This document shows positions 1-13,614 of a DNA stretch of 17,836 bases, piece by piece. Origin of the DNA: Candidatus Eiseniibacteriota bacterium (GTDB taxonomy: Bacteria; ARS69). Below the pieces are notes generated by a model that searched no databases, was not told where the DNA came from, and was given only the letters and a program-made list of their open reading frames with translations. How positions within the stretch are numbered: the first letter of the stretch is position 1; the number at the start of each line of letters is the position of its first letter. The stretch is from positions 1 through 17,836 of the forward strand of contig JBQTGV010000209.1 in assembly GCA_052390515.1 (NCBI GenBank). The letters are read 5' to 3'. Made by a program: the position numbers and the translations under genes.

Positions 1-153
1 TGGGTGGGGAACCGCGCCGTGATCCTGGCCGACGTCGGTGAGCGCTGCGTGATCGGCGCGGGCTCGGTGGTGACGAAGCCGCTCGCGCCGCGCTCCATCG
101 CGGTGGGATCGCCGGCGCGCGTCGTCGGCACCCGCGGCGGGCCGGCGTCGTGA
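1..153 (+). CDS. Hexapeptide-repeat (left-handed beta-helix) acyl/acetyltransferase, 3' fragment
   Basis: Manual translation of frame 1: WVGNRAVILADVGERCVIGAGSVVTKPLAPRSIAVGSPARVVGTRGGPAS*. IGAGSVVTK...GSPARV is the typical C-terminus of this family. The TGA at 151-153 overlaps the next GTG (GTGA). Confidence 0.85.
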   Translation, partial: WVGNRAVILADVGERCVIGAGSVVTKPLAPRSIAVGSPARVVGTRGGPAS

Positions 154-1196
154 GCGAGGGCGCGGTCGTCGTCGAGGACTTCGCCCCGGGCGGTGAGGAG
201 GAGTGGGACGCGTTCGGCGCCGGGCACCCCGAGCACTCGCACTACCATCGTGCCGGTTGGGCCTCGGTGATCCGAGCCGCGTTCGGCCGGCGGACGCCGT
301 ACCGGCTGGCGCGCGCCGGCGGCCGCGTGGAGGGGGTCCTGCCGCTCGTGGCGTTCGCCCATCCGCTCTTCGGCCGCTACCTCGTTTCCGTTCCGTTCCT
401 GAACCGCGGTGGGATCCTGTGCACGACCGAGCGCGCGAAGATCGCGCTGCTCGCCGAGGCACGAAGCTTGATGGCGCGGACGCGGTCCTCGTTCTGCGAG
501 CTGCGCCACGTGCGTGGGATCGACCCGAGCCTGCCCGCGCGCGAGACGAAGGTCTCGATGGCGCTGGACGTGCGCTCAGGTCGGGACGCGCTGTGGAAGT
601 CGGTGGGGTCGAAGGTCCGCAACCTGGTACGCAAGGCGGAACGGGCCGGGCTCACCGTGCGGGAGGGACGCCCGGAGTCGGACCTGGACGCGTTCTACGC
701 GGTCTTCGCCGCCAACATGCGCGACCTGGGCACGCCGGTGTACACGCCGCGTTTCTTCCGGGAGTGCTTCCGCGTCTTCCCGCGGGATCTTCGCCTCAAC
801 GTCGTGGAGCGGGACGGACGGATCGCGGCGGCGGGCATCTGCGTCCGCGAAGGCGCGTTCACCGAGATGCACTGGGCGGCCTCGGATCGGCGGGAGCTCG
901 CCCACGCGCCGAACATGCTGCTCTACTGGGACGCGATCGCCCACGCGGCGGATCAAGGCGTGGCGGAGTTCTGCTTCGGCCGATCCACGGTGGATTCGGG
1001 CCCCTACCGGTTCAAGCGGCAGTGGGGGGCTGCGCCCACGTCGCTCCGCTGGGAGTATCTCCTCGCGCCCGGCGAGCAGCTCCCCTCGCTGAATCCGGAC
1101 AGCCCGAAGTTCCGCCTCGCGACGCGCGTCTGGCGCCGCCTGCCCTTGTCCGTGACGCTCCGCCTCGGGCCGCCGATCGTCCGACATCTTCCCTGA
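150..1196 (+). CDS. FemAB-related (GNAT-fold) protein, PEP-CTERM/exosortase system-associated (TIGR03019-like)
   Basis: Motifs GVLPLV...LFGRYLVSVPFLNRGG, KVRNLVRKA, NMRDLGTPV, PNMLLYW, FGRSTVDSG.YRFKRQWG, LNPDSPKF; located in an exosortase cluster. Confidence 0.88.
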   Translation: MSEGAVVVEDFAPGGEEEWDAFGAGHPEHSHYHRAGWASVIRAAFGRRTPYRLARAGGRVEGVLPLVAFAHPLFGRYLVSVPFLNRGGILCTTERAKIALLAEARSLMARTRSSFCELRHVRGIDPSLPARETKVSMALDVRSGRDALWKSVGSKVRNLVRKAERAGLTVREGRPESDLDAFYAVFAANMRDLGTPVYTPRFFRECFRVFPRDLRLNVVERDGRIAAAGICVREGAFTEMHWAASDRRELAHAPNMLLYWDAIAHAADQGVAEFCFGRSTVDSGPYRFKRQWGAAPTSLRWEYLLAPGEQLPSLNPDSPKFRLATRVWRRLPLSVTLRLGPPIVRHLP

Positions 1197-1199
1197 GGA

Positions 1200-2159
1200 T
1201 CAGGAAGACGTGCTCCCGCCGGGCTTCGGGCGATGGTCCGGCTCCGCGAAGGGCTCCATCCCGAGGAAGCGGATCCGGAACGCGTCGATCGTATTGAGCC
1301 GGACCCTGTGGGTGAACTGGCCGACGGCGTCGTGCGCCGTCCAGGCCAGCCGGCGCGCGGGATCCACCGCTGCGTCCGGGTGCACGACCTCGTAGCCGAG
1401 CCGCGCGAGAGAGCTGCCTGCCACCGCTTCGAACGTGCGTACCTGCGCGGGACGGAGGTGCGTCTTCCACTTGCGGCTGTTGTCCCCGGCCACGCGCTTC
1501 AGCACCGCTTCCAGCCGCGCCGGCACGAACGGCTGTCCGAGAAAGCGGTGCAGGGCTTCGGCCTGCCGCTGCGGATCCTCGAGCAGCGTCTCGTAGCGCA
1601 CGTCGAGGAGGCGGCCCGAGGCACGCACGCGGGTGAGCACCTCGCTTTCGGCCGTACACCGGTTCCATAGCAGCGCGCAGGCGTACACGTTGCGCGGTCC
1701 CCACTTCCGCCCGAGAAGAGAGAGGGCGACGTCGCGTCCGTCCCGGAACACGTGCAGGTAGAGCGCGTTCGGGAAGAGCCGGTCGATGACGTCCAGCTCG
1801 AGGACGTAGTGGGGCGTCTTGTCGCCCCAGCCGGTGCGCCCGTGCCGCAGTACCCGCGCCAGGCAGATGCGGTCCACCAGCTCGGGGTAGGACGCGGTCT
1901 CCGGCGGCTCGACGAACGCATCCGGGTCGAGGGCCAACTTCCACTGCATCACCGGCCGTTCCTTGAGGATGTCCCTGAGCAGCCGCACGCGCGCCTCGCG
2001 GCGAGACAGATCCCCGTAGCGGGGAAGGAGCCGCGCGTACCTGGTGATGAAGTGCGACTCGACCGGAGGACCCCAGGCGGTCTCGCGGATCAGGCTGCCG
2101 ACCAGCGTCGTGCCGGAACGCGGACAGCCGATGACGAAGAGCGGGGGAGTCGGGCTCAC
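1200..2159 (-). CDS. PAPS-dependent sulfotransferase (Sulfotransfer_3-like)
   Basis: 5'-PSB loop FVIGCPRSGTT, WGDKTP, 3'-PB motif RDGRDVALS, VRYETLLEDP. GTG start preceded by AAGGAGG on the minus strand (2170-2176). Confidence 0.88.
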   Translation of the reverse strand: MSPTPPLFVIGCPRSGTTLVGSLIRETAWGPPVESHFITRYARLLPRYGDLSRREARVRLLRDILKERPVMQWKLALDPDAFVEPPETASYPELVDRICLARVLRHGRTGWGDKTPHYVLELDVIDRLFPNALYLHVFRDGRDVALSLLGRKWGPRNVYACALLWNRCTAESEVLTRVRASGRLLDVRYETLLEDPQRQAEALHRFLGQPFVPARLEAVLKRVAGDNSRKWKTHLRPAQVRTFEAVAGSSLARLGYEVVHPDAAVDPARRLAWTAHDAVGQFTHRVRLNTIDAFRIRFLGMEPFAEPDHRPKPGGSTSS

Positions 2160-2333
2160 GCGGCGGGATCCTCCTTCGGCACCTTACCATCGGGTCGTGC
2201 CTCCGAGAAGTCCACCGCGGCCGGCGCGTTCCACGACGCGCGGGATGCGTTGCGAAACGCGGGCGCCTTGCGTTCCGCCCGGCGTGCCGTGCACGCCGGC
2301 ACGGTGTCCTTGCGCATTCTTGCCGGTGTTGCA

Positions 2334-2349
2334 TGGCACGGAACGTGCA
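2334..2349 (+). promoter_or_regulatory. Sigma54 (RpoN) -24/-12 promoter
   Basis: TGGCACGGAACGTGCA vs consensus TGGCACG-N4-TTGCW: GG and GC exactly 10 nt apart, one mismatch; about 50 nt upstream of the GTG at 2400. Confidence 0.75.
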
Positions 2350-2399
2350 GCCCATGCCTTGCGACGAGAAACGTCCTCGATCACCGCCGGGAGAGCATC

Positions 2400-3848
2400 G
2401 TGAAGAGGATCCTGATCGTCGACCCCGACACGCAGTATCGGGGCCGCGCTCGCGGAGTGCTGGAGGCGCTGGACTACGAAGTCGTGGCGCTGGCCAGTGC
2501 GGAAGACGCGCTGCTGGCGATGGGGGAGGGTGCGCCCTCCCTGGTCATCGCCGGCTGCGACGAGCCGCGCGATCCCGAAATGGAGCTGGTGAGGATGGCG
2601 CGGCGGGCGGTACGCCCGGTGCCCGTGCTCGTCCTGGCGCGCAACGGGAGCACGCGCGGCGCGATCGACTTCATGGACGCGGGCGCCTACGACTACGTCG
2701 TCAAGCCCGGGGATCCGAGCGAGCTGCTCGAAGTGGTGCGCGAGATCCTGCGCCTCTCCGGCGAGTTCGTGAACCCGGTGGAAGTGGCCGAGGCACCGGA
2801 CAAAGGCGGCGACGAGCGCGGCGAGATCATCGGGCGCAGCCCGGAGATGATCGAGATCTTCAAGCTGATCGGCCGGATCGCGAAGTCCGACGCTGCCGTC
2901 CTCGTCCAGGGCGAGAGCGGCACCGGCAAGGAGCTCGTCGCCCGCGTGATCCACGAGAACAGCCGGCGCGCCGAAAAGCCCTTCCTGGCCGTGAACTGCG
3001 CGGCCATCCCGGAGACGCTGCTGGAGAGCGAGCTCTTCGGGCACGAGAAGGGCGCCTTCACCGGATCGGCCGGACCGCGGAAGGGCAAGTTCGAGCTCTC
3101 CCACGGCGGCACCATCTTCCTCGACGAGGTCGGGGACATGAGCCTGGCCACGCAGGCGAAGATCCTGCGCGTGCTGCAGGAGCACACCTTCGAGCGCGTC
3201 GGCGGCGAGCAGACCCTCACTGCGGACACGCGGATCATCACCGCCACGAACAAGAGTCTGGTCGACGCGATCGAGCGGAGCGAGTTCCGGGTCGACCTCT
3301 TCTATCGCCTGAAGGTGGTGTCCATCTTCCTTCCGGCGTTGCGCAAGCGGCCCGGGGACGTACCGCTGCTGATCGACCACTTCATCCAGAAGCATCGCAA
3401 ACAGTCCAAGCTCTCCATCCACGGGATCTCCCAGCGCGCGCAGGCCTTCCTCGAGGCGCAGCCCTGGCCGGGGAACGTCCGCGAGCTGGAGAACGCCATC
3501 CAGACCGCGGTCGTGCTCAATCGGACCGGGCTCCTGGAGGTGGAGGACTTCCCGTTCCTGCGGCAGGGAGGGGAGAAGGACGGCGTGGCCGAGACGGTCA
3601 CCGACGTGCTCGATCGCCTCAAGTGCCAAGCGCGGCACGCGGCGCGCATCCTGCTCGCGTCGGAGGACGCCGCCGGAGGGGGCGAGGTCTACCACCGCTG
3701 CGTCGGCGAAGTGGAGCGCTCCGTCGTGGAAGCGGCGCTCGACCTGCATCGCGGGAACCAGGTGCGCGCGAGCCGGGCGCTCGGAATCAGCCGGAACACG
3801 TTGCGTAGCAAGATCGCTCCGGTTGACCGGGAAGAGAAGCGCCCCTAG
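2400..3848 (+). CDS. Sigma54-dependent transcriptional activator (atypical REC - AAA+ - Fis-type HTH)
   Basis: Walker A GESGTGKE, ESELFGHEKGAFTGS, Walker B IFLDEVG, DLFYRL, WPGNVRELEN, HTH GNQVRASRALGISRNTLRSK. Start placed at GTG 2400 (MKRILIVD), not the ORF-track start at 1752, which overlaps the sulfotransferase. Confidence 0.92.
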   Translation: MKRILIVDPDTQYRGRARGVLEALDYEVVALASAEDALLAMGEGAPSLVIAGCDEPRDPEMELVRMARRAVRPVPVLVLARNGSTRGAIDFMDAGAYDYVVKPGDPSELLEVVREILRLSGEFVNPVEVAEAPDKGGDERGEIIGRSPEMIEIFKLIGRIAKSDAAVLVQGESGTGKELVARVIHENSRRAEKPFLAVNCAAIPETLLESELFGHEKGAFTGSAGPRKGKFELSHGGTIFLDEVGDMSLATQAKILRVLQEHTFERVGGEQTLTADTRIITATNKSLVDAIERSEFRVDLFYRLKVVSIFLPALRKRPGDVPLLIDHFIQKHRKQSKLSIHGISQRAQAFLEAQPWPGNVRELENAIQTAVVLNRTGLLEVEDFPFLRQGGEKDGVAETVTDVLDRLKCQARHAARILLASEDAAGGGEVYHRCVGEVERSVVEAALDLHRGNQVRASRALGISRNTLRSKIAPVDREEKRP

Positions 3849-3870
3849 ACTCCGCGACCCGGAGCGGGCC

Positions 3871-5085
3871 ATGAACATCCTCTTCCTGTCGCAGCGCGTT
3901 CCGGAGCCTCCCAACAAGGGCGACAAGATCCGCTCGCACCACTTCGCGCGGCGTCTGGCCGCGCGGCACGCCGTGCACCTGGCATGCCTCGCGGACGACC
4001 CCGCGGAGGAGGCGCACGTGGACGCGGCGAAGCGGTGGGCCGCCTCCGTCACCTGGCGGCAGCGCTGCGGCGCGGAGAGCGCGTGGCGCGCGGGCGTATC
4101 CGCGCTGACCGGGCGGCCGTTGACCGCGGGCTTCTTCCGCTCCGGCGGGCTCTCCGAGGCGGTCCGCCGCGCGCGGCAGCGGGAGCGGTTCGACGTGCTG
4201 GTGGCGTACTGCTCGGGGATGGCCGGGTACGTGGAAGGCTCGTCCGAGGCGAAAGTCCTCGATCTCGTCGACGTGGACTCCGAGAAGTGGAAGGAGTACG
4301 CACGGCGCGCGGCCCTTCCGGCCAGGGCCCTCTACGGCCTGGAGCACCGGCTGCTTCGTGGCTACGAGAAGCGTCTCGTGCGCGAGTTCGACCGGGCCGT
4401 GCTCATCTCCGTCGAGGAGCGGGACATGCTTGCTCGCTTCGCCGACGTGCGGCGCGTGGCGGTCGTCTCCAATGGAGTGGACGCGGAGTGGCTCGCGCGC
4501 CCGCGACCGCGGCCACGGGGTACCGTGCTGAGCTTCATCGGCGCGCTCGACTACTTCGCGAACGTGGACGGCATCGTCTGGTTCGCCCGGGAGGTCTTTC
4601 CCGAGGTGCGCCGCCGCGTGCCCGGGGCCACGCTGCGCGTCGTGGGCCGACGGCCCGTGCCGGCGGTGCGGGGGCTGTCGGACGGGGAGGGCGTCGAGGT
4701 CGTGGGAGAGGTCGCCGACATGAGGCCGGAGCTGTGGAGCGCGACGCTGGCCGTCGCCCCACTGCGGATCGCGCCGGGCATCCAGAACAAAGTGCTGGAG
4801 GCGATGGCCGCGGGAACGCCCGTCGTCGCGACGCGGGCCGCGCTGCGCAGCCTGGTCGGGCGGCCCGGCGAGCACTACCTGGCGGCCGACGGGGCGGAGG
4901 AGTTCGCGGCCGCGGTCTCGCGGCTCGTCGAGCGGCCGGACGAGGCTGATGCGATGGCCGCGCGCGCGCTCGCCCTGGTGCGCGATCGGTACTCGTGGGA
5001 CCAGCGTGCGCGGGAGTACGAGACCGTGCTGGAGGAGGCCGTCGCCGAACGGCGAAGCGTCGAAGCGCGCGGAGGAACGGTGTGA
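3871..5085 (+). CDS. GT4-family glycosyltransferase, PEP-CTERM/exosortase system-associated (TIGR03087-like)
   Basis: N-terminal LFLSQRVPEPPNKGDKIRS, DLVDVDSEKW, FIGALDYFANVDG, VAPLRIAPGIQNKVLEAMAAG. ATG 3871 follows GGAG. Confidence 0.9.
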   Translation: MNILFLSQRVPEPPNKGDKIRSHHFARRLAARHAVHLACLADDPAEEAHVDAAKRWAASVTWRQRCGAESAWRAGVSALTGRPLTAGFFRSGGLSEAVRRARQRERFDVLVAYCSGMAGYVEGSSEAKVLDLVDVDSEKWKEYARRAALPARALYGLEHRLLRGYEKRLVREFDRAVLISVEERDMLARFADVRRVAVVSNGVDAEWLARPRPRPRGTVLSFIGALDYFANVDGIVWFAREVFPEVRRRVPGATLRVVGRRPVPAVRGLSDGEGVEVVGEVADMRPELWSATLAVAPLRIAPGIQNKVLEAMAAGTPVVATRAALRSLVGRPGEHYLAADGAEEFAAAVSRLVERPDEADAMAARALALVRDRYSWDQRAREYETVLEEAVAERRSVEARGGTV

Positions 5086-5948
5086 AGAACGCGCTCACCG
5101 TGGACGTCGAAGACTGGTTCCAGGTCTCGAACTTCGACGGCGTGGTCCGCCGGGACGAGTGGGACAGCTTCCCCTCGCGCGTGGAAGCGAACACGCGACG
5201 TCTCCTGGACCTGTTCGCGCGGCACGGCGTCCGTGGCACGTTCTTCGTGCTCGGGTGGGTGGCGGAGCGCTTTCCCGATCTGGTCGCCGAGATCCGCCGT
5301 CTCGGGCACGACGTGGAGAGCCATTCGCACGGGCACGAGCTGGCCTACCGGCTCGGCGCGCAGCGCTTCGGGGAGGACCTTCGCCGCTCCCTGGACGCGC
5401 TCGAGAAGGCGACCGGAGTACGCCCGCGCGGGTTCCGCGCGCCGAGCTTCAGCATCGACCGCAGGAGTCTGTGGGCCTTCGACGTGCTCGCCGAGCACGG
5501 GATCGAGTACGACTCGAGCGTGTTCCCGGTGCGCCACCCCCGGTACGGGATGCCCGCGTTCTCTCGCGTGCCGAGACGGATTCGCACCGCGTCGGGCCGC
5601 ACCATCCGCGAATTTCCGCTCACCACGCTGCGCGTGCTGGGTCGAAACCTGGGGGCGTCGGGCGGCGCGTACCTGCGCATCCTGCCGATCGACGTGATGG
5701 TGCGCGCGTTCCGGCAGATGAACGCGGCCGGGCAGCCCGCCGTGCTCTACGTGCATCCGTGGGAGCTGGATCCGGGGCAACCTCGGCTCGGCGTTCGCGG
5801 CTGGGGACGCATCACGCACTACGCGAATCTCGCCTCGACGGAGCGACGGCTGGAGCGGCTGCTCCGGGCGTTCACCTTCGCTCCGATGGCGGACGTGCTG
5901 GAGTCCGCGCCCGGGATGGCGCAGGAGCCTGTCGAGGTCGGCGCGTGA
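5082..5948 (+). CDS. Polysaccharide deacetylase, PEP-CTERM locus subfamily (TIGR03006-like, DUF3473 C-terminus)
   Basis: NALTVDVEDWFQV, TFFVLGWVAE, HxxxH (HSHGH), GFRAPSFSI, YDSSVFP, YVHPWELDPGQPR. GTGA overlap with the upstream gene and GGAGG RBS. Confidence 0.9.
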   Translation: MKNALTVDVEDWFQVSNFDGVVRRDEWDSFPSRVEANTRRLLDLFARHGVRGTFFVLGWVAERFPDLVAEIRRLGHDVESHSHGHELAYRLGAQRFGEDLRRSLDALEKATGVRPRGFRAPSFSIDRRSLWAFDVLAEHGIEYDSSVFPVRHPRYGMPAFSRVPRRIRTASGRTIREFPLTTLRVLGRNLGASGGAYLRILPIDVMVRAFRQMNAAGQPAVLYVHPWELDPGQPRLGVRGWGRITHYANLASTERRLERLLRAFTFAPMADVLESAPGMAQEPVEVGA

Positions 5949-6826
5949 GCGCGGCGCGCGCGCTCCGCGGAACGGCACCCGACCTCGCGCTCCTGGGAGC
6001 GGGGCTCGTGCTGGTGTACGCGCCGCTCGCCCCGGAGCTGGTGCGCGACTGGTGGAGCTCCGGAGACTTTTCGCACGGCTTCTTCGTTCCGCTCGTCTCC
6101 GGGTGGATCGTGTGGACGCGTCGCGAGAGGATCGGCGCCGCGCCGATCCGGCCGTTCCCGCCCGGGCTCGCGCTACTCGTCCTCGCCGCCGCGCAGTACC
6201 TGCTCGGCGTGGCCGCCGCGGAGTTCTACCTGCAGCGGACCTCGGCGGTGCTGTTCCTCGGAGGCGGCGTGCTGTTCCTGTTCGGACCGCGCGTCGCCGC
6301 GGAGTGCGCGTTCGCCATCGTCTTCCTGCTCTTCGCCATTCCGCCGCCGAACCTGGTGATGAACTGGATCGCGTTCCCGCTCCAGCTGCAGGCCTCCCGA
6401 TTCACCGAGCTGATCCTGGATGTCGCCGGGATCGAGGCGGTGCGCAGCGGCAACGTGATCCATCTCGAGCACGTCTCGTTGGAAGTGGCCAGGGCGTGCA
6501 GCGGCCTGAGATCGCTGGTGACCCTCTCCGCTCTCGGCGCGATCGTCGCCGAGGGCAGCCTCCTGCCTTCGCGGGGCGGGCCGCGTGGCACCGCGCTGCG
6601 CGTTCTGGTGTTCCTCGGCGTGTTCCCGGTGGCGGTGGCGGTGAACTCGGTGCGCGTCGCCGCGACGGCGGTGTTCGCCGCGAACGGGGGCGTGGTGCTG
6701 GCCTCGGGGTGGGCTCACGAACTGGTCGGGCTGCTCATGTTCCTCGTTTCCATGGGCCTGCTCCTCGCCTGGAGGTCGATGCTGCGATGGATGGAATCGT
6801 GGCGCGCGTCGCCGCCGCGCTCCTGA
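5945..6826 (+). CDS. Exosortase (EpsH family transpeptidase)
   Basis: Multi-pass hydrophobic protein with DFSHGFFVP, FPLQ, GNVI, catalytic Cys in VARACSGLRS, Arg in VNSVRV, His in WAHELVG. GTGA overlap with the deacetylase. Confidence 0.92.
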   Translation: MSAARALRGTAPDLALLGAGLVLVYAPLAPELVRDWWSSGDFSHGFFVPLVSGWIVWTRRERIGAAPIRPFPPGLALLVLAAAQYLLGVAAAEFYLQRTSAVLFLGGGVLFLFGPRVAAECAFAIVFLLFAIPPPNLVMNWIAFPLQLQASRFTELILDVAGIEAVRSGNVIHLEHVSLEVARACSGLRSLVTLSALGAIVAEGSLLPSRGGPRGTALRVLVFLGVFPVAVAVNSVRVAATAVFAANGGVVLASGWAHELVGLLMFLVSMGLLLAWRSMLRWMESWRASPPRS

Positions 6827-7461
6827 TCGGGGCGATGCTGCTCGGCGGCCGGACGATCCGCGAGGGCGCCCGGCAGCCGGCGGAGTCCGTGCGTCTGGAG
6901 CTCGTCCCGCAGCAGCTCGGCGCGTGGGAGGGCACCGACCTCGAGGTCGGCGCCGACGTCCTGGAGCTGCTGGACCCGGACGGCTTCCTGCTCCGCGAGT
7001 ACCGGCAGGCCGGGGAGCTTCCTCTGCAGCTCTACGTGGACTACCACCGCGTGCAGCGTCTCGGCTCGACGATCCACTCGCCGCGGATCTGCTACCCGGG
7101 CGCGGGCTGGCAGCCCGTCGGCGTGGAGCTGGGCGAGATCACGGTGGACGGAGGAACGCGGCCGGCGTGCTGGCTTCGCCTGCGGTCCGGCGAGCGCGAG
7201 ATGCTCGTGCTGTACTGGTACGAGTCGCGTTGGGGACGCTCCGCGCGGGAGCTGGATCTCAAGAGGAACATCGTGCGCTCCGCGCTGATGCGGCGCCCGG
7301 CCGACGCGGCCCTGCTGCGCTTCGCGACGCCTCTCCTGGGAGGCGACGAAGGCGCGGCGCGGGAGCGCATCGTGCGCTTCGTGCGGGCCGCGGAGCCATC
7401 GGTGCGTCACGAGCTGCCGTTCGACCGAGAGGCGGACGGCGGCGTCCTGGAAACCGATTGA
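6787..7461 (+). CDS. epsI: EpsI family exosortase-associated protein
   Basis: N-terminal hydrophobic anchor, VPQQLGAWEG, LYVDYH, IHSPRICYPGAGW, LVLYWY. ATG 6787 follows GGAGG (6771-6775) and overlaps the exosortase 3' end by 40 nt. Confidence 0.85.
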   Translation: MDGIVARVAAALLIGAMLLGGRTIREGARQPAESVRLELVPQQLGAWEGTDLEVGADVLELLDPDGFLLREYRQAGELPLQLYVDYHRVQRLGSTIHSPRICYPGAGWQPVGVELGEITVDGGTRPACWLRLRSGEREMLVLYWYESRWGRSARELDLKRNIVRSALMRRPADAALLRFATPLLGGDEGAARERIVRFVRAAEPSVRHELPFDREADGGVLETD

Positions 7462-7511
7462 CAGTCCCCGGAGGCACTCGGATCATGCCTCCGCTTTGTC
7501 GGAGAGGAACG

Positions 7512-8648
7512 ATGCGGGAACGTACACGCCGGATCGCGACGGCCGCCGCGCTCGCCCTCGCCTCGATCAGCGGACCGGCGCTCGCGCAGGATGCCGCGGT
7601 GGAGGAGGGCCCCGCGCTCGAGTTCCGCGCGAACGTGCCCTGGGCGCGCGTGGTGCTCGAGGGGGATCCCTCGATCGCGGGCGTTTCGCCGCTTCGCGTA
7701 CCGGGCCCGCTCGCCGGCAACCTGTGGCTGTACGCGGCGGGACCGGGGCTCGAGGAGCAGCGCGGGAAGGTCCGCGTCGTACTCGACGAGAACGGCTCGC
7801 ACATCGCGTCCTACGGGTCGCTGCCGTTTCGCCAGACGATGACGCGCGCCGTGCTGTACCCCGGCTTCGCCCCGCTGCGGGCACAGGAGCGGACCAAGGG
7901 GCTCACCATGGCGGCCGCCGCCACCGCGGGGCTGGTCCTCTCGCTGTGGGCCCACGACGACTATCGAGGCGCGCTGGACCGGCGCGAGTCGGCGGAGGCG
8001 GACCTGGCCGCCGCGCCCGACAGCACGCTGCCGGCGGCCCGGGAGGCCCTGCGCGGGGACCGGGCCGAGGAAGGGCACCTGCGCGATCGCCGTGATCTGT
8101 TCCTGAGCGCCACGGCGGCCGTGTGGGGAGTCAGCCTCGTCGACGCCCTCGTGTTCCGCCCGCGCTTCGACGTGACCGAAGCGGACGAGACGTCGCTCAC
8201 GGTGAGCCTCCGCCGGAAGTCGCGCGGGCAGGCCGTGGCGCGCTCGCTCTTCTTCCCGGGCCTCGGTCAGGCGTACAACGGGCAGCGCCGCAAGGGGTTC
8301 TGGGTCGCCCTGGGAGGCCTGGCGGCCGGGTCCTACGCGGTGTGGCGCATGGACGACGTCGCCCGTGCGGAGGCCCAGCTGCGTCAGGCCGAGGCCCGGC
8401 TCGCGGAGCTGGACACGCCCGAGAGCGAGGCGTTGCGGGACAAGAGCCTGGGCGACGTCGAGAACACCCGTAGCGAACGGGACACGGCCTTCAAGATCCT
8501 GGCGGGGTACTGGGGGCTCTCGCTGCTCGATTCCGTGCTCTCCTTCGAGGAGCCCTGGGGCACCGTCCCGGTCGGCGCCGAGCAGAGCGCGCTCCGCTGG
8601 CGCATCGATCCCGCGCGGGGCGTCGTCGCCGGCGAGCTGCGTTTCTGA
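7512..8648 (+). CDS. Exported/membrane hypothetical protein: signal peptide, possible PEGA-like domain, two DUF5683-like repeats
   Basis: MRERTRRIATAAALALASISGPALA-QD signal peptide; repeats RAVLYPGFAP...KG...VWGVSLVDA and RSLFFPGLGQAYNG...KG...YWGLSLLDS; RBS GGAGAGG before ATG 7512. Domain names are by recognition only. Confidence 0.7.
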   Translation: MRERTRRIATAAALALASISGPALAQDAAVEEGPALEFRANVPWARVVLEGDPSIAGVSPLRVPGPLAGNLWLYAAGPGLEEQRGKVRVVLDENGSHIASYGSLPFRQTMTRAVLYPGFAPLRAQERTKGLTMAAAATAGLVLSLWAHDDYRGALDRRESAEADLAAAPDSTLPAAREALRGDRAEEGHLRDRRDLFLSATAAVWGVSLVDALVFRPRFDVTEADETSLTVSLRRKSRGQAVARSLFFPGLGQAYNGQRRKGFWVALGGLAAGSYAVWRMDDVARAEAQLRQAEARLAELDTPESEALRDKSLGDVENTRSERDTAFKILAGYWGLSLLDSVLSFEEPWGTVPVGAEQSALRWRIDPARGVVAGELRF

Positions 8649-8668
8649 GCTGCTTCGGAACACACGAA

Positions 8669-8698
8669 TTGACAGCTTTCGGATCCCGGTGCTAGTCT
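8669..8698 (+). promoter_or_regulatory. Sigma70-type promoter for the sugar transferase
   Basis: TTGACA (8669-8674), 18-nt spacer ending in TGC (extended -10), TAGTCT (8693-8698), in intergenic DNA. Confidence 0.7.
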
Positions 8699-8778
8699 TT
8701 CGGTTCGCGAAGGCATCGGCAAGGTCCGGGTGGGGATGCGGCGGTCCTTCGCAACCCCGTTTCGCCCGGAGCGAGGCC

Positions 8779-9555
8779 GTGCGCGAGTCGGAAGTGCAAA
8801 GCAGCCGTTCTCCCGTATTCGTCGCCGCGAGCGTCGTCTCGGCGATGCCGGCGCCCCGTCTGGTCGCAGAACCCGTGCGGCCCGATCCTCTTCGCCGCAT
8901 CGTCGACGTCGTGGGCTCGGCCGTGCTCCTCGTTCTCTTCCTTCCGGTCATGGTCGCGATCGCCGCTTCGATCCGCGCCGGCTCGCGGGGCCCGATCTTC
9001 TACCGGCAGACGCGCGTGGGCATCAATCGACGCACCGGCATGGACCGCCGCGCGCCGGTCAGCCGTGCCGCGGGCCTCGATCGGCGCCGCATGGACCGTC
9101 GCACCATCGCCAGTGCCGGGAAGCAGTTCCGGATCGTCAAGTTCCGCACGATGGTGGAGGACGCGGAGGCCGAGACCGGGCCGCAGTGGGCGGCGAAGGG
9201 CGACGCTCGCGTCACCACGATCGGCCGGCTGCTCCGGCGTTACCGCCTCGACGAGCTTCCGCAGCTCGTGAACGTGCTCCGCGGCGACATGACGTTCATC
9301 GGCCCGCGTCCCGAGCGGCCCTTCTTCGTCGAGCGCTTCCGACGGCGGATTCCCGCGTACGCTGATCGATTGACGACGCTGCCCGGGATCACCGGTCTCG
9401 CGCAGGTGGAGCACAAGTACGACGAGACTGAGGAGGACGTGCGGCGCAAGCTCGAGTACGACCTCCGCTACATCCGGGAGAGGGGGCTGCTCACCGATCT
9501 GCGGATCTTGTGGCGGACGGTCATCGTCGTCCTCACCGGTGCCGGGGCGCACTGA
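8779..9555 (+). CDS. Priming sugar transferase (polyprenyl-phosphate phosphoglycosyl transferase, Bac_transf family)
   Basis: RRIVDV, GPIFYRQTRVG, KFRTM, GRLLRRYRLDELPQLVNVLRGDMTFIGPRPERP, PGITGLAQV, KLEYDLRY. Start uncertain: GTG 8779 (GGAG 7 nt upstream) or ATG 8845. Confidence 0.9.
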   Translation: MRESEVQSSRSPVFVAASVVSAMPAPRLVAEPVRPDPLRRIVDVVGSAVLLVLFLPVMVAIAASIRAGSRGPIFYRQTRVGINRRTGMDRRAPVSRAAGLDRRRMDRRTIASAGKQFRIVKFRTMVEDAEAETGPQWAAKGDARVTTIGRLLRRYRLDELPQLVNVLRGDMTFIGPRPERPFFVERFRRRIPAYADRLTTLPGITGLAQVEHKYDETEEDVRRKLEYDLRYIRERGLLTDLRILWRTVIVVLTGAGAH

Positions 9556-9619
9556 CCCCTGGTCCGCGTCCGACCAGCCACGTCGAGCATAGGTCCCGAA
9601 GCCTCCGCACCGCGCCGGC

Positions 9620-9648
9620 TTGACCCGGCTCTCCGACCGTGCTAGCGT
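9620..9648 (+). promoter_or_regulatory. Sigma70-type promoter for the STAS-GGDEF-epimerase-regulator unit
   Basis: TTGACC (9620-9625), 17-nt spacer ending in TGC, TAGCGT (9643-9648). Confidence 0.65.
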
Positions 9649-9703
9649 GCGCGCCGGAACTTCCAGTCAATACGTGACTTAGGACGAACCGCGCAGGGGA
9701 GCC

Positions 9704-10105
9704 TTGGAGCATTCCGTTCGGGACGTGGGGGACGTGACCGTCGTCACGATCCAGGGGAAGATCCTGGGCGGGCCGGAGTCCGAGGGCCTCCGGGTCGAGC
9801 TGGAGCGGATCGTGGGCGGCTCCTGCCGCCGGCTCCTGGTCGACCTCTCGGGCGTCCCGTGGATGAACAGCGCGGGGCTGGGGATCCTTCTCTCGGCCTA
9901 TGCCCGCATGCGGGAGCGGGGCGGGGACGTCCGCCTCGCCGGTGCGGGACCCCGGGTCCGAGATATCCTACGAACGACCAAACTCCTCACGGTTCTTGCC
10001 GTCCTGGACGATGAAGGGGCAGGAATTCGGAGCTTCGAGGCGGGTCCCTCCGCGGACCGGGAGGCCGGCGCCCGGGCAGGGGGCGTCCGTCCGGGCTCCG
10101 GGTGA
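9704..10105 (+). CDS. STAS-domain protein (anti-sigma factor antagonist, SpoIIAA/RsbV-like)
   Basis: VTVVTIQGKI, LLVDLSGVPWMNSAGLGILL with the phosphorylatable Ser, GGDVRL, VRDILRTTKL; TTG start after GGGGAG. Confidence 0.88.
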   Translation: MEHSVRDVGDVTVVTIQGKILGGPESEGLRVELERIVGGSCRRLLVDLSGVPWMNSAGLGILLSAYARMRERGGDVRLAGAGPRVRDILRTTKLLTVLAVLDDEGAGIRSFEAGPSADREAGARAGGVRPGSG

Positions 10106-10177
10106 GCCGAGCGGTCGTTCCCGAACCCGCCGGATCCCGCGCGGCATGCGCACTTCGACCCTCCGAGGGCGTGGGTG

Positions 10178-11218
10178 ATGGACCGTTCCGCCAGAGCAGC
10201 CGGTGACGCGGCGATGGCCGACCAGGCCCGCATCGTCGCGGAGCTGCTCGCGCTGCCGCCGCTCGGTCAGACCGGCCGCCTCAAGTATGCGGCGCTCCTG
10301 CAGGGCGCGGTGACTTTGCTCGGCGCGCAAGGGGCGACCGTCGGCTTCTGGGTCTCCCCGGGGGAGCTGCGGCGCTTCCGCGCGCGAGCCGGAGAAGGGG
10401 GAAGCGACGTGCACGAGGACGTCGGGGATCCCGGGCGCTCCGACGGCCCCGTCGCCACGGTGCTTCGCTCCGGCGGAGCGCGGCTACTGGGACCCGAGAC
10501 GCCGGCCGAACCGGGCGGCGAGTACCCCGGATTCCCCTCCGTCTCGCGCATCCTGCTCGGGCTGCGTCTTCGCGACGAGCCGCCTGCCCTGCTCAGCGTG
10601 CACCGCTTCGGCGGGACGCCGTTCGCGGCACCGGATCGCGAGAGGGCGGAGCTGCTCGCTCCGCTCTTCGCCACCGCGCTCGACAACCTGCGCCGCTTCT
10701 CCCGCGCCGAGGAGCTCTCCATCACCGACGGGCTCACCGGCGTGTACAACTACCGCTACTTGCGCAGCGCGCTGGACAAGGAAGTGGCGCGCGCTCGGCG
10801 CTTTCGCGAGAAGTTCTCCATCATCATGCTCGACGTCGATCACCTGAAGGAATACAACGACGTGCACGGCCACCTGCGAGGCAGCGAGGTGCTTCGCCGC
10901 CTGGCGGGCCTCGTCACCGCCGAGCTTCGCGGCGCGGACATCGTGGCCAAGTACGGCGGCGACGAGTTCGTGATCATCCTGCCCCAGACCGAGCGGCCCG
11001 GCGCGCGGATCCTGGCGGAGAGGATCCGCCGTTCGGTGGAGGCGCACGAGTTCCCCGGCGAGGACAAGGGAATGAAGATCACGTCGTCGATGGGGATCGC
11101 GCAGTTCCCCGAGGACGGCGAGGTCTCCCGCGACCTGCTGGATGCGGCGGACACGGCGCTCTACGAGGCGAAGCGGTCCGGGCGCAACCGGGTGTCGGCG
11201 GAGTCTCGATCCGCGTAG
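10178..11218 (+). CDS. GAF-like sensor GGDEF dinucleotide cyclase; candidate Hypr (3',3'-cGAMP-producing) enzyme
   Basis: TDGLTGVYNYRY, MLDVDHLKEYNDVHGHLRGS, I-site RGAD five residues before GGDEF, ADTALYEAKRSGRN; GAF-type exit helix PFAAPD...LATALDN-like. Start at GTG 10175 or ATG 10178. Confidence 0.9.
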   Translation: MDRSARAAGDAAMADQARIVAELLALPPLGQTGRLKYAALLQGAVTLLGAQGATVGFWVSPGELRRFRARAGEGGSDVHEDVGDPGRSDGPVATVLRSGGARLLGPETPAEPGGEYPGFPSVSRILLGLRLRDEPPALLSVHRFGGTPFAAPDRERAELLAPLFATALDNLRRFSRAEELSITDGLTGVYNYRYLRSALDKEVARARRFREKFSIIMLDVDHLKEYNDVHGHLRGSEVLRRLAGLVTAELRGADIVAKYGGDEFVIILPQTERPGARILAERIRRSVEAHEFPGEDKGMKITSSMGIAQFPEDGEVSRDLLDAADTALYEAKRSGRNRVSAESRSA

Positions 11219-11230
11219 GGAGGAGGAGGC

Positions 11231-12202
11231 GTGGCGAAGTTCCTCGTCACGGGGGGCGCCGGGTTCATCGGCTCCAACCTGGTGGATGCACTGGTGGCCG
11301 CGGGCGGCTCGGTGCGGGTGCTCGACGACTTCTCGAGCGGCCGGCGTGAGAACCTGGAGCGCGCCCGCTCGCGGGTCGATCTGATCGAGGGCAGCATCAC
11401 CGATCCGGACGCGGTCGCGCGGGCCATGCGCGGCGCGGACTACGTGCTGCACCACGCGGCCATCGCCTCGGTGCCGAAGTCGCTGGCCGATCCGGAGCTG
11501 GCCTATCGCACCAACGTGGAGGGCACGCTGAACCTGCTGGAAGCGGCCCGCCGCGAAACCGTGCAACGACTCGTGCTGGCCTCGTCCTCGGCGGTCTACG
11601 GCGACGGCGACGGCACGGATCCGGACGCGCCGCGCTCGGAGGAAATGTCTCCCGATCCGTTGTCACCGTACGCGGCCTCGAAGCTGGCCGGTGAGATCTA
11701 CTGCCGGCAGTACACGGCGTGCGGCTGGGTTCCGACGGTGTGCCTACGGTACTTCAACATTTTCGGGCCACGTCAGGACCCGGGGTCGGACTACGCCGCG
11801 GTCGTGCCCATCTTCATCCGCCGGCTGCTCGAGGGAAACCGCGCCGTGATCCACGGCGATGGGCTGCAGACGCGGGACTTCACCTACATCGAGAACGCCG
11901 TGCGCGCGAACCTGCTGGCGGTGGAGCGGGCGTCCGCGGTCGGCGGCGTGTTCAACGTCGGCTGCGGGCGGTCCTTCCGCGTCATCGACCTGTACCGGCG
12001 GATCGCGGACTTCTTCGAGTCCCGGCTGGAGCCGGTGCACGAGCCGGAGCGCGAGGGCGACGTGCGCAACTCCAGGGCCTCGATCGAGCTGGCGCGGGTG
12101 AAGCTCGGCTATCAGCCTTCAGTCGGCTTCGAAGAGGGTCTGGCCAACACCTGCTCGTGGTTCCGCGCGCATCCCGAGGCGGCCGGGGTGGCGGGCTCGT
12201 GA
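11231..12202 (+). CDS. NAD-dependent NDP-sugar epimerase/dehydratase (extended SDR; UDP-Glc/GlcNAc 4-epimerase-like)
   Basis: LVTGGAGFIGSNL, ASSSAVYG, catalytic YAASK, LRYFNIFGPRQDP, GDGLQTRDFTY, REGDVRNS; strong AGGAGG RBS. Confidence 0.92.
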   Translation: MAKFLVTGGAGFIGSNLVDALVAAGGSVRVLDDFSSGRRENLERARSRVDLIEGSITDPDAVARAMRGADYVLHHAAIASVPKSLADPELAYRTNVEGTLNLLEAARRETVQRLVLASSSAVYGDGDGTDPDAPRSEEMSPDPLSPYAASKLAGEIYCRQYTACGWVPTVCLRYFNIFGPRQDPGSDYAAVVPIFIRRLLEGNRAVIHGDGLQTRDFTYIENAVRANLLAVERASAVGGVFNVGCGRSFRVIDLYRRIADFFESRLEPVHEPEREGDVRNSRASIELARVKLGYQPSVGFEEGLANTCSWFRAHPEAAGVAGS

Positions 12203-13614
12203 GCTCGCCGGGCACCCTGGTCCTGGTCGTGGACGACGACCGCATGTTCCGTCGGATCCTCGAGTCCGGTCTGTCCGACATGGGGTTCCGCGTGGAGACG
12301 AACGATGGCGCCGGCGACGTTCCTGCGGTCGTCGCCTCCGCCGGGCCCGACGTCGTGCTCCTCGACCTGGAGCTCCCCGGTCAGACCGGCCTCGACGTGC
12401 TCGCGCGCTTCGCCGCCGCGAGGCTGGAAGTCCCGGTCATCATGGTGACCGGCACCGAGGACGTCTCCACCGCGGTCCGCGCCATGCGCACGGGTGCCTT
12501 CGACTACGTGACCAAGCCGGTCAACCTCGAGGAGCTGTCCGTCTCCATCGAGCGGGCCGTGGAGTCGGCGCGCGTCCTCCGCGAGCGGAACCTGTACCGG
12601 GACCGTTACGACCGCCGGTTCCGCGTGGTGGAGAGCCGGAACCCGGCGATGCGGCGCATCTACGAGCTCGCGCGGCGAGTGGCGCAGAGCCAGACCACGA
12701 CGGTGCTGATCCAGGGCGAATCGGGCACGGGCAAGGAGCACATCGCGAACCTCATTCACCAGGCTTCGCCCCGCAGCGACAAACCGTTCCTGGAGATCAA
12801 CTGCGCCAGCCTGCCCGACCCTCTGCTGGAGAGCGAGCTCTTCGGGCACGAGCGGGGTGCGTTCACCGACGCGTCGGAGCGCAAGCGCGGCCTCCTGGAG
12901 CTCGCCGACGGCGGCACCCTCTTCCTCGACGAGGTGGGGGAGATGGCGCTGCCCATCCAGGTGAAGATGCTGCGCGTGCTGGAGCGCATGTCGTTCCGGC
13001 GGGTCGGAGGAACCGAGGACATCCAGGTGTCCATCCGCATCATCTCGGCGACGAACCGGGACCTCGCGAAGGCGGTCGCGGAGGGGGAGATGCGCGAAGA
13101 CTTCTTCTTCCGGCTGAAGGTCGTGCCGATCGAGCTGCCGCCGCTTCGCCAGCGTCCGGAGGACTTCGCCCCGCTGGTGGAGAGCTTCCTGGAGGAGTTC
13201 TCGCATGCCTTCGGGCGCTCGTTCAGCGGCGTCTCCGGCGAGGCCATGCGGCTCATGCGCGCGTACGCCTGGCCGGGGAACATCCGCGAGCTTCGCAACT
13301 GCCTGGAGCGTGCCGTGCTTCTGCACGACGGGACGGAGCTGAGCGCGGAGATGCTCTCGATTCCGGGGAGCGGGCTTCCGGGGGATGAGCCGCTCGAGTT
13401 CCTGGAAGATCTGCGCGAGATCGGCGAGCGCGGAATCCCGGAGGCGGGCGTGGACTTCGAGCGCCTCGTCGGCTCCCTGGAGCGCTTCCTCATCTCCAAG
13501 GCGTCGGAGAAGGCGAGTTGGAACCAGAGCCTGGCCGCGCGCTACCTGCACCTGAACCGGGACAAGCTGCGCACGCGGATGAAGAACCACGGTCTCGGCC
13601 GCGGTTCGAGCTAG
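12199..13614 (+). CDS. Sigma54-dependent response regulator (canonical REC - AAA+ - HTH; NtrC/AtoC-like)
   Basis: REC: VVDDD, VVLLDLELP, IMVTG, YVTKP. AAA+: GESGTGKE, ESELFGHERGAFTDA, LFLDEVG, WPGNIRELRN. HTH NQSLAARYLHLNRDKLR. GTGA overlap with the epimerase. Confidence 0.92.
   Translation: MSSPGTLVLVVDDDRMFRRILESGLSDMGFRVETNDGAGDVPAVVASAGPDVVLLDLELPGQTGLDVLARFAAARLEVPVIMVTGTEDVSTAVRAMRTGAFDYVTKPVNLEELSVSIERAVESARVLRERNLYRDRYDRRFRVVESRNPAMRRIYELARRVAQSQTTTVLIQGESGTGKEHIANLIHQASPRSDKPFLEINCASLPDPLLESELFGHERGAFTDASERKRGLLELADGGTLFLDEVGEMALPIQVKMLRVLERMSFRRVGGTEDIQVSIRIISATNRDLAKAVAEGEMREDFFFRLKVVPIELPPLRQRPEDFAPLVESFLEEFSHAFGRSFSGVSGEAMRLMRAYAWPGNIRELRNCLERAVLLHDGTELSAEMLSIPGSGLPGDEPLEFLEDLREIGERGIPEAGVDFERLVGSLERFLISKASEKASWNQSLAARYLHLNRDKLRTRMKNHGLGRGSS

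Follow-up and report, generated by a model that had tools for sequence, protein, structure and literature searches.

A GAF-GGDEF gene with the Hypr sequence signature beside an exosortase polysaccharide locus: a candidate 3',3'-cGAMP synthase in a Candidatus Eiseniibacteriota genome

Hybrid promiscuous (Hypr) GGDEF enzymes have been recognized as a class since 2016, and the class already includes a GAF-Hypr enzyme, GacB of Myxococcus xanthus. They are reported to be rare, making up 0.17% of GGDEF domains according to the figure quoted in PMC9140294, and they have been discussed as a deltaproteobacterial invention (PMC6456294). The serine of GacA-type enzymes is the equivalent of D344 in PleD (PMC9140294). 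A cross-dimer position, occupied by Arg in 94% of diguanylate cyclases, is also linked to the product: where it holds Tyr, Ser, Ala or Gln, Hypr enzymes make mainly cGAMP, and those that lean towards c-di-GMP have Arg (PMC6456294). PMC6456294 adds the Goldilocks rule, by which Hypr enzymes carry GGDE[F/Y] and never GGEEF. The enzymes are promiscuous in vitro (PMC9140294), and a role of the I-site is known in GacA and GacB (PMC6456294 among the sources). GacB is activated by cAMP at its GAF domain and inhibited by c-di-GMP. Bd0367 of Bdellovibrio bacteriovorus produces both cGAMP and c-di-GMP in vivo, and the S214D exchange turns it into a c-di-GMP synthase (PMC9140294).

The window analyzed here, a stretch of 17,836 nucleotides from a Candidatus Eiseniibacteriota bacterium, contains a GAF-GGDEF gene on the plus strand (P0001; 10178..11218), which was taken from the open reading frame list with its translation and encodes 346 amino acids. 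An alternative start, GTG at 10175, lies one codon 5' of the annotated start. GC3 of the cyclase reading frame was 0.89, compared to 0.72 for the antisense frame. The GGDEF catalytic domain spans residues 182-338 (10721..11191, plus strand; Pfam PF00990, E 1.1e-43; TIGR00254, 173 bits), and a search of the organism's own genome returned the same coordinates. An AlphaFold2 model of the whole protein had a mean pLDDT of 90.3.

The N-terminal part, residues 1-175 (10178..10702, plus strand), was assigned as a GAF-fold sensor domain from a weak Pfam match and from the model. The Pfam GAF_3 match covered residues 37-170 at E 6.8e-4, under the gathering score, and relatives carry GAF, GAF_2 and GAF_3. 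The GAF part alone had no match among PDB sequences at E up to 10. In the model, residues from about 5 to 183 form a GAF fold, which best matched the N-terminal domain of PmGH (Z 14.6), followed by the GAF domains of PDE6/5/2 (Z 13.1-13.7) and GAF-B of DevS (Z 13.3). A sequence-only reading of this DNA had called the enzyme GAF-like-regulated, and the predicted N-terminal GAF fold (Z 13-14.6) bears out that description. The GAF domain is fused to a GGDEF domain with the Hypr signature, an architecture that matches GacB. Between the two, DSSP on the model assigned one long helix to residues 151-182 (10628..10723, plus strand), which likely serves as a dimer or signal helix. Among the structures matched by the whole model were two sensor-helix-GGDEF cyclases, 5llw and 4zmu.

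The translation of 10178-11218 (plus strand) contains NDVHGHLRGSEVL, in which Ser236 is encoded by AGC at 10883..10885, exactly where the sequence-only reading had placed the serine. That reading had named the alignment of this residue with PleD D344 as one of its tests. In the HMMER alignment, Ser236 fell on the serine of GacA (GHLVGSQVL in 6d9m) and on the canonical Asp in WspR, and so the claim withstood the comparison; the residue-level alignment was made with 6d9m and WspR, and the step from the GacA-type Ser to PleD D344 is that of PMC9140294. With an offset of 130 for the 6d9m chain, the aligned serine is S348, and N339 and D374 then match the residues of the eLife paper. At the same offset, Tyr192 (TAC, 10751..10753, plus strand) aligned with the cross-dimer residue Tyr304 of GacA, with LTGVYNYRYL lying on LTGLFNYRYL. 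The position PleD 344 and the cross-dimer site, which in a canonical diguanylate cyclase hold Asp and Arg, are thus occupied by Ser236 and Tyr192. The third mark, GGDE[F/Y], is present as GGDEF at residues 260-264 (10955-10969), and all three sequence marks of Hypr enzymes are therefore found in this protein. Two of these published marks, the GGDE[F/Y] rule and the cross-dimer Tyr, lay beyond those used by the sequence-only reading.

The other residues read from the DNA were found again in the translation: MLDVD with the metal-binding Asp219, the RxxD motif, DHLK in place of DxFK and KYGG in place of RYGG. The KYGGDEF segment (10949..10969, plus strand) holds Lys258 (10949-10951) at the position of PleD R366, which a review lists as a substrate contact (PMC7186502), the central Asp262 and the general base Glu263. 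Lys258 for Arg and Leu223 for Phe are the two substrate-site differences of the family from GacA. The I-site RxxD is RGAD at residues 251-254 (10928..10939, plus strand; sequence and alignment), and Arg282 of the secondary I-site aligned with GacA R393/394 in the 6d9m alignment. The GGDEF domain is intact, with Asp219, Asn227, Asp228, GGDEF, Lys332 and others invariant in the family. A Ser at the specificity position is insufficient on its own, since of five canonical cyclases given an Asp-to-Ser exchange four were inactive and one, GSU3350, was a pure diguanylate cyclase (PMC6456294). The sequence-only reading had likewise called the Ser suggestive and insufficient.

Comparison with proteins of known structure also pointed to GacA. 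The best PDB sequence match was 6d9m, the Hypr domain of Geobacter metallireducens GacA (E 1.7e-40, 142.7 bits), and the next chain scored 129.1 bits. A profile of the family gave 209.8 bits against 6d9m and 180.7 against the best canonical cyclase, a gap of 29 bits. Two Asp-type domains that are 53-54% identical to the query domain, P0232 and P0214, were used as controls; for these, WspR and PleD ranked first and 6d9m scored only 119.3 and 127.1 bits. GacA itself is about 46% identical to the query domain (74/160, by hand count of the printed alignment). Asp-type domains with 49-54% identity occurred in an unbiased HMMER search, whose best 150 matches were taken up by two-domain proteins and the family of the cyclase. 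Since some Asp-type domains are nearer to the query than GacA is, common descent with the deltaproteobacterial Hypr enzymes does not follow.

The signature was conserved in every set of relatives. The Ser was kept in 120 of 120 homologs among the matches listed, in 80 of 80 genome loci and in all nine same-phylum orthologs. In the same 120 listed homologs, the position of Lys258 was always Lys, the motif was always GGDEF, the catalytic and I-site residues were invariant, and the cross-dimer residue was Tyr in 119 and Phe in one. Tyr occupied the cross-dimer position in 75 of the genome loci and Phe in five. Ser, Tyr/Phe, Lys258 and GGDEF were kept together in 80/80 loci, which were found by patterns that left out the Ser and the Tyr/Phe, and in 9/9 orthologs within the window's small GTDB phylum, which were found by whole-protein search. 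The contig scan with these patterns yielded members of the cyclase's own family and nothing else. In an unbiased sample, Lys at the R366 position was seen only in the family of the cyclase and in one other domain. When the three trait columns were left out of the alignment, the resulting tree grouped the Y/F-S-K domains, with 25 in one clade of 26, and none of 500 label shuffles was equally clustered. The Ser is no chance or private change, as it is kept across homologs, loci and orthologs. The sequence-only reading had expected standard annotation to call such a protein a plain diguanylate cyclase, and the source names were indeed all diguanylate cyclase, GGDEF domain-containing protein or hypothetical protein.

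The gene lies beside an XrtA/PEP-CTERM exosortase polysaccharide locus (150..9555; Pfam and TIGR models). This locus encodes a FemAB-like protein, a sulfotransferase (minus strand), a sigma-54 regulator, a glycosyltransferase, a deacetylase, an exosortase, EpsI, a DUF5683 protein and a priming sugar transferase. TIGR03006 (333 bits), TIGR03019 (332), TIGR03087 (379) and TIGR02602 (181) each scored over their cut-offs, and the specific XrtA model scored 171, under its cut-off of 208. An exosortase, EpsI and markers of the XrtA system are found next to the cyclase gene, and the sequence-only placement inside a polysaccharide locus is thereby confirmed. In close relatives, the cyclase gene is likewise within an XrtA/PEP-CTERM exosortase locus, as judged by synteny. 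Directly 5' of the cyclase is a gene for a STAS anti-sigma-factor antagonist (9704..10105, plus strand; Pfam STAS; TIGR00377, 58.7 bits, over cut-off), which was present in 8/8 close loci with sufficient flank and in 0/57 distant loci. On the 3' side, genes for an NAD-dependent sugar epimerase (11231-12202, plus strand; Pfam) and a sigma-54 response regulator (12199-13614, plus strand; Pfam) follow. The gap from the cyclase stop to the epimerase is 12 bases, and the epimerase and regulator genes overlap by 4 bases. Rfam gave a single chance-level match over the window (E 0.77). The sigma-54 promoter consensus, with up to 3 mismatches allowed, matched 38 times against 43.5 expected and so gave no signal, and no sigma-70 promoters or terminators were found in 9400-12400.

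The organism's own genome holds five GGDEF domains, of which that of the cyclase here is the only Ser-type and three are Asp-type, which leaves room for c-di-GMP alongside as a signal of its own. The genome also carries one class III nucleotide cyclase gene, which makes a cyclic mononucleotide input to the GAF domain possible. Among 72 candidates in the 95% complete assembly, none was a GEMM-I riboswitch (RF01051); the control was positive in 0/14 genomes, and therefore this absence is weak. None of the six HD-GYP domains in the genome carries RxxQ/N, the mark of cGAMP phosphodiesterases. Instead, three have RxxK/R, two have RxxS and one is degenerate, with the motif position checked against PmGH. 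No EAL domain was found in the genome. Two PilZ proteins are present.

Taken to the limit of what sequence can support, the Ser, the GGDEF motif, Tyr192 and the preference for 6d9m, measured with Asp-type controls, favor the proposed Hypr reading. We consider it reasonably probable that the gene product is a homodimeric, GAF-regulated Hypr GGDEF cyclase. In the mechanism that we propose, a small ligand at the N-terminal GAF domain would act through the long linker helix to bring the two GGDEF domains into a productive arrangement, with one purine NTP bound per half-site. Asp262 of GGDEF would preserve the Mg-to-base distance on which a Ser-type enzyme depends, and Tyr192 of the partner subunit would stack on either base. 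If so, the enzyme would accept ATP alongside GTP, making 3',3'-cGAMP plus some c-di-GMP. The I-site formed by RxxD and Arg282 would most likely bind c-di-GMP from the three canonical cyclases and turn the enzyme off. The conserved neighborhood suggests that the signal probably feeds into the control of envelope or exopolysaccharide genes.

It is unlikely, though a serious prospect, that the protein is an ordinary diguanylate cyclase in the cell, with a Ser that accommodates GTP and with c-di-GMP as essentially the sole product, by which exosortase-linked polysaccharide production would be turned on. At polysaccharide loci, GGDEF genes most commonly serve in control by c-di-GMP. Every catalytic and I-site residue of a diguanylate cyclase is present, the riboswitch and HD-GYP searches of the genome gave no cGAMP-specific reader or eraser mark, and the altered GSU3350 shows that Ser combined with GGDEF is compatible with pure diguanylate cyclase activity (PMC6456294). 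However, across two phyla there was no exception to the joint presence of Ser, Tyr/Phe and GGDEF, which argues for selection on a non-default specificity. Hypr enzymes with a cross-dimer Tyr make mainly cGAMP (PMC6456294), and the family profile scores 29 bits higher against the GacA Hypr domain than against the best canonical cyclase; both speak against a pure c-di-GMP output.

Two further possibilities were weighed. It is quite improbable that the main product is a different purine dinucleotide, either c-di-AMP or a mixed compound of non-standard type, through a shift of specificity beyond GacA by Lys258 and Leu223. No GGDEF enzyme is known to make chiefly c-di-AMP in vivo, and Arg-to-Lys is a conservative change. 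Nevertheless, Lys258 sits at the substrate contact of PleD R366, is invariant in the family and is nearly absent outside it in the sample, and Hypr GGDEFs are able to produce each of the three dinucleotides and to use further purine NTPs (PMC6456294). A catalytically inactive protein whose I-site acts as a receptor for cyclic dinucleotides is the least probable of the explanations we weighed, and we give it very little credence. The I-site is intact and Asp-to-Ser inactivates many GGDEF enzymes (PMC6456294), but the published inactive pairing is Ser with GGEEF and the motif here is GGDEF (PMC6456294). Moreover, all catalytic residues are invariant in the 120 homologs listed, unlike those of degenerate receptor domains.

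The GAF-regulated Hypr cyclase that we favor is no new kind of system, as its chemistry, its signature residues and the GAF-Hypr architecture are already published. What is new is the occurrence of the known Hypr signature in new phyla, with a product that is predicted to be of the cGAMP type. A literature search limited to the words GGDEF and Eisenbacteria found no paper. GGDEF-based cGAMP signaling would reach new bacterial branches through a family that keeps the full signature in uncultured Eisenbacteria-like phyla, and such a family would show that automatic "diguanylate cyclase" names hide cGAMP-type enzymes. The adjacent exosortase polysaccharide locus and sigma-54 regulator offer a concrete, testable output, and a genome without known cGAMP readers points to effectors yet to be found. 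A bolder version is possible, if doubtful. The gene could be a founding member of a separate cGAMP-type GGDEF lineage across uncultured Eisenbacteria and a small neighboring GTDB phylum, marked by a distinct active site with Tyr/Phe, Ser, Lys-YGGDEF and DxLK. GGDEF would have come first, followed by R-to-Y and finally D-to-S, in a history separate from that of the deltaproteobacterial enzymes. Its cGAMP would be coupled to envelope or exosortase polysaccharide control through new kinds of readers and erasers, which is suggested by a genome without GEMM-I riboswitch, EAL domain or RxxQ HD-GYP.

Among the known systems, GacA (GSU1658/Gmet_1914; 6D9M), the Rec-Hypr GGDEF GMP-AMP cyclase of Geobacter, is the best PDB sequence match by protein and by profile. 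Its Ser348, Asn339, central GGDEF Asp, cross-dimer Tyr304, and RxxD plus Arg393 I-site all align, and its GGDEF fold matches the AlphaFold2 model with a Z of 25.0 and an rmsd of 2.3 across 166 residues. In contrast to GacA, the sensor here is a GAF rather than a receiver domain, the host phylum differs, Lys258 replaces the Arg before YGGDEF and Leu223 replaces the Phe of DxFK. GacB (MXAN_2643) shares the two-domain architecture, GAF followed by a Hypr GGDEF with an I-site, a likeness of architecture rather than of compared sequences. Bd0367 (DgcA), a Hypr GGDEF protein, has the Ser (S214) and the I-site in common by description, but its N-terminal domain and its biology, gliding exit from prey, are different. 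PleD and WspR share the fold, the catalytic residues and the I-site with the cyclase (110-128 bits; Z 24.1-25.1 in the structure search), and differ from it in having Asp at PleD 344 and Arg at the cross-dimer site, where the protein described here has Ser236 and Tyr192.

The target cyclase gene, an ORF at 10178-11218 on the + strand (alternative GTG start at 10175), lies in a 17,836-base window of 70.5% G+C. Its codon-position G+C profile is of the real-gene type, with a GC3 of 0.89 versus 0.72 in the antisense ORF, and the product has 346 residues. The sequence-only reading had reported a serine at the specificity position, and NDVHGHLRGSEVL was indeed found in the translation, with Ser as residue 236 (codon AGC, 10883-10885). 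The other motifs it had listed were also recovered: MLDVD (Asp219), RGAD as the RxxD (residues 251-254), DHLK, and KYGGDEF (Lys258; GGDEF at 260-264). In Pfam, residues 182-338 matched GGDEF over its full length (E 1.1e-43), and residues 37-170 matched GAF_3 below threshold. NCBIfam returned generic diguanylate cyclase models only, each under its equivalog cut-off. An AlphaFold2 model, for which 34 family members were used (mean pLDDT 90.3), has an alpha/beta domain joined by a long helix (residues 151-182) to the GGDEF domain, and as a whole resembles the sensor-helix-GGDEF cyclases 5llw and 4zmu. Residues about 5-183 of the model match GAF domains with Z of 13-14.6, and the earlier description of the N-terminal part as GAF-like was therefore correct.

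Among all PDB sequences, the top match for the target was 6d9m_A (E 1.7e-40), a T4-lysozyme fusion of the GGDEF domain of Geobacter metallireducens GacA, a hybrid promiscuous (Hypr) enzyme. GHLRGSEVL of the target aligned to GHLVGSQVL of GacA, YND to VND, and YGGDEF to YGGDEF. A chain-to-residue offset of 130 turns the aligned positions into S348, N339 and D374/E375, the residues named in PMC6456294 (this and the other papers are cited from excerpts), so the GacA numbering is self-consistent. The same offset pairs GacA Tyr304 with target Tyr192 (LTGLFNYRYL on LTGVYNYRYL). The canonical Asp stands opposite Ser236 in alignments with WspR, and PleD D344 is the counterpart of the GacA-type Hypr Ser (excerpt of PMC9140294). 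The claimed correspondence of Ser236 with D344 agrees with these alignments, by way of GacA S348 and the WspR Asp.

The excerpted text of PMC6456294 gives three marks of Hypr enzymes: Ser/Thr at position 348; GGDE[F/Y] and never GGEEF, the Ser/GGEEF pairing being inactive; and, at the cross-dimer position, Tyr, Ser, Ala or Gln in enzymes that produce mostly cGAMP. At that position 94% of diguanylate cyclases have Arg, and Hypr enzymes that also have it lean to c-di-GMP. The target carries all three marks (Ser236, GGDEF and Tyr192), and its state is exactly the end of the evolutionary route proposed in the same excerpts, in which GGDEF came first and R304Y and D348S followed in either order. 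The I-site, through which c-di-GMP inhibits GacA and GacB (excerpts of PMC6456294 and 10.1101/600031), is intact, with RxxD and Arg282, the counterpart of GacA R393.

Conservation was examined with a word-indexed search, in which 8000 candidates were scored, 767 had E up to 0.001 and the best 120 (41-100% identity) were used. All 120 listed homologs had Ser236, Lys258, GGDEF, RxxD and Arg282, and residue 192 was Tyr in 119 and Phe in one. Since this search favours shared words, two less biased checks were made, a species-genome scan and a whole-protein search of the window's phylum (below). The scan, with the patterns [AC]KYGGDEF and DVD[NHG]LKxYN, neither of which includes Ser236 or Tyr192, found 442 relatives; Ser was present in every one of the best 80 of the 442, and residue 192 was Tyr in 75 of these and Phe in 5. 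An unbiased HMMER search of the target domain against 1.84 billion representatives gave 521,140 matches at E up to 0.001. The best 150 of these proteins contained 274 domain stretches, with Asp at the specificity position in 229 and Ser in 26; 25 of the Ser stretches carried the Y/F-S-K-GGDEF set and one was a degenerate second domain. Several tandem-GGDEF proteins among these matches (P0122, P0200, P0201, P0185 and P0228) have Asn at the specificity position with a Tyr/Phe cross-dimer residue (Y/F-N-R-GGDEF), a combination of which we know no discussion.

In a FastTree tree of 260 GGDEF domains, with the three trait columns taken out, the 25 family domains fell within a clade of 26, the intruder being the long-branched second domain of P0240. 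This clade lacked strong support, and the smallest set holding the query with at least 95% support had 60 rows, 26 of them Ser and 34 not. On this tree the Ser label required three changes, a number as low in 0 of 500 shuffles. The window's GTDB phylum comprises 12 species genomes, all of one family. A search with the whole protein found orthologs (64-69% identical) in nine of the 11 others, all nine with the Y-S-K-GGDEF set, and no match in G001 (100% complete) or G004 (73% complete). G001, without an ortholog at E up to 1e-40, is reported complete at just 2.7 Mb. By taxon label, the closest relatives are Gemmatimonadota or unclassified MAGs, and those 39-59% identical are mostly Candidatus Eisenbacteria; a few carry other labels, perhaps through errors of binning.

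When the 34 family members were made into a profile, 6d9m scored 209.8 bits with it and 5euh, the highest-scoring canonical domain, scored 180.7. The controls were P0232 and P0214, which share 54% and 53% identity with the query domain and are the nearest Asp-type single-domain neighbours among the HMMER matches listed. Both put WspR or PleD first in PDB searches, and among GGDEF-only chains 6d9m fell below WspR for both (119.3 bits for P0232, 127.1 for P0214). These sequence comparisons therefore tie the preference for the Hypr structure to the Ser family and not to its wider neighbourhood. In identity, by contrast, GacA (about 46% over the domain; 74/160, counted on the HMMER midline) is no closer to the target than these Asp-type proteins are, and fold comparison did not tell Hypr and canonical domains apart, since both gave Z of 24-25.

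All genes from 2250 to the window end are on the + strand. The cyclase had been described as inside a polysaccharide locus, and XrtA/PEP-CTERM exosortase polysaccharide genes do lie upstream of it: a FemAB-like protein (TIGR03019), a minus-strand sulfotransferase, a sigma-54 response regulator (2250-3848, +), a glycosyltransferase (TIGR03087, +), a deacetylase (TIGR03006, +), the exosortase with EpsI (+), a 396-residue DUF5683 protein (7458-8648, +) and a priming sugar transferase (+). The DUF5683 protein matched no NCBIfam model and is 38-44% identical in close loci. A STAS gene (+) stands between this locus and the cyclase. Downstream are a sugar epimerase (+) after 12 bases, a second sigma-54 response regulator (12199-13614, +) overlapping the epimerase by 4 bases, and after these LptE and LeuRS (both +). 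The PEP-CTERM-box regulator model TIGR02915 scored 354 and 363 bits against the two regulators, under its cut-off of 502.6. The sigma-54 promoter consensus showed no excess over chance in the window.

This gene order is kept in the 10 closest loci as far as contigs reach. Counting loci with enough flank, the neighbours were STAS (8/8), sugar transferase (6/6), deacetylase (6/6), exosortase (4/6), epimerase (7/7), sigma-54 regulator (5/5), LptE (5/5) and LeuRS (5/5). The gap between cyclase and epimerase is about 1.3 kb in all close relatives with enough flank, compared with 12 bases (11219-11230) in the window; in one such locus (L007:11017-12315) it holds a 432-residue UDP-glucose/GDP-mannose dehydrogenase gene, which the window lacks. 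Among 70 more distant loci, no STAS (0/57) or exosortase (0/30) was nearby, and thus association with the exosortase is confined to the window's own small phylum. Association with envelope-sugar genes and a sigma-54 two-component system reaches wider: the regulator and LptE were downstream in 24/37 of the distant loci, and each of the 32 whose downstream flank is 9.5 kb or longer had the regulator (19), an epimerase homolog (17) or both. The one distant locus annotated, L037, has sugar-nucleotide-modifying genes and a PAS histidine kinase in between.

The window's own assembly (4.27 Mb, 223 contigs, 95% complete) encodes five GGDEF domains: the target as the sole Ser type, three Asp types with GGEEF/GGEEL and one degenerate. 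It also has six HD-GYP domains, two PilZ domains and one class III nucleotide cyclase. No EAL domain was found in this assembly, so all cyclic-dinucleotide breakdown would rest on HD-GYP enzymes. At the Rxx(K/R) position, set by alignment to PmGH, three have RxxK/R, two RxxS and one is degenerate. The excerpt of 10.1101/600031 links RxxQ/N to cGAMP-specific hydrolysis, as in PmxA, which has RxxQ where canonical enzymes have Rxx(K/R); none of the six carries this mark. The two RxxS domains (C213:32257-32772, + and C208:2880-3356, +) read RPYS. No GEMM-I riboswitch was found in this genome by a search that was positive in no control genome either.

Taken together, the target is probably a Hypr cyclase. 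In this enzyme, the GAF domain would gate the cyclase, c-di-GMP would inhibit it, and the product would be 3',3'-cGAMP with some c-di-GMP alongside. The Ser alone would not justify this reading, because D-to-S substitution in five canonical enzymes reportedly abolished activity in four and gave a pure diguanylate cyclase in the fifth (excerpt of PMC6456294); the earlier caution that the Ser was suggestive and not sufficient was well placed. A cyclase whose only product in practice is c-di-GMP is a less probable, though serious, alternative, and an inactive receptor is highly improbable. The odds of a Hypr enzyme are raised because the set of Ser, GGDEF and Tyr is complete, its conservation is unbroken and the likeness to GacA is specific. 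Another purine dinucleotide as main product, with Lys258 and Leu223 as the cause, is improbable, only a little less so than the receptor.

Hypr GGDEFs, their signature residues and the GAF-Hypr enzyme GacB are already published (excerpts of PMC6456294, PMC9140294 and 10.1101/600031). We found no published work joining Eisenbacteria and GGDEF. New here are the Lys258 and Leu223 variants particular to the target's family, its genomic company, and its hosts, uncultured phyla that do not fall within the deltaproteobacterial groups mentioned in the excerpts of PMC6456294. GacB of Myxococcus xanthus is a GAF-Hypr enzyme, and the target, as known from sequence and model, is predicted to join a GAF fold to a GGDEF domain with Hypr marks.
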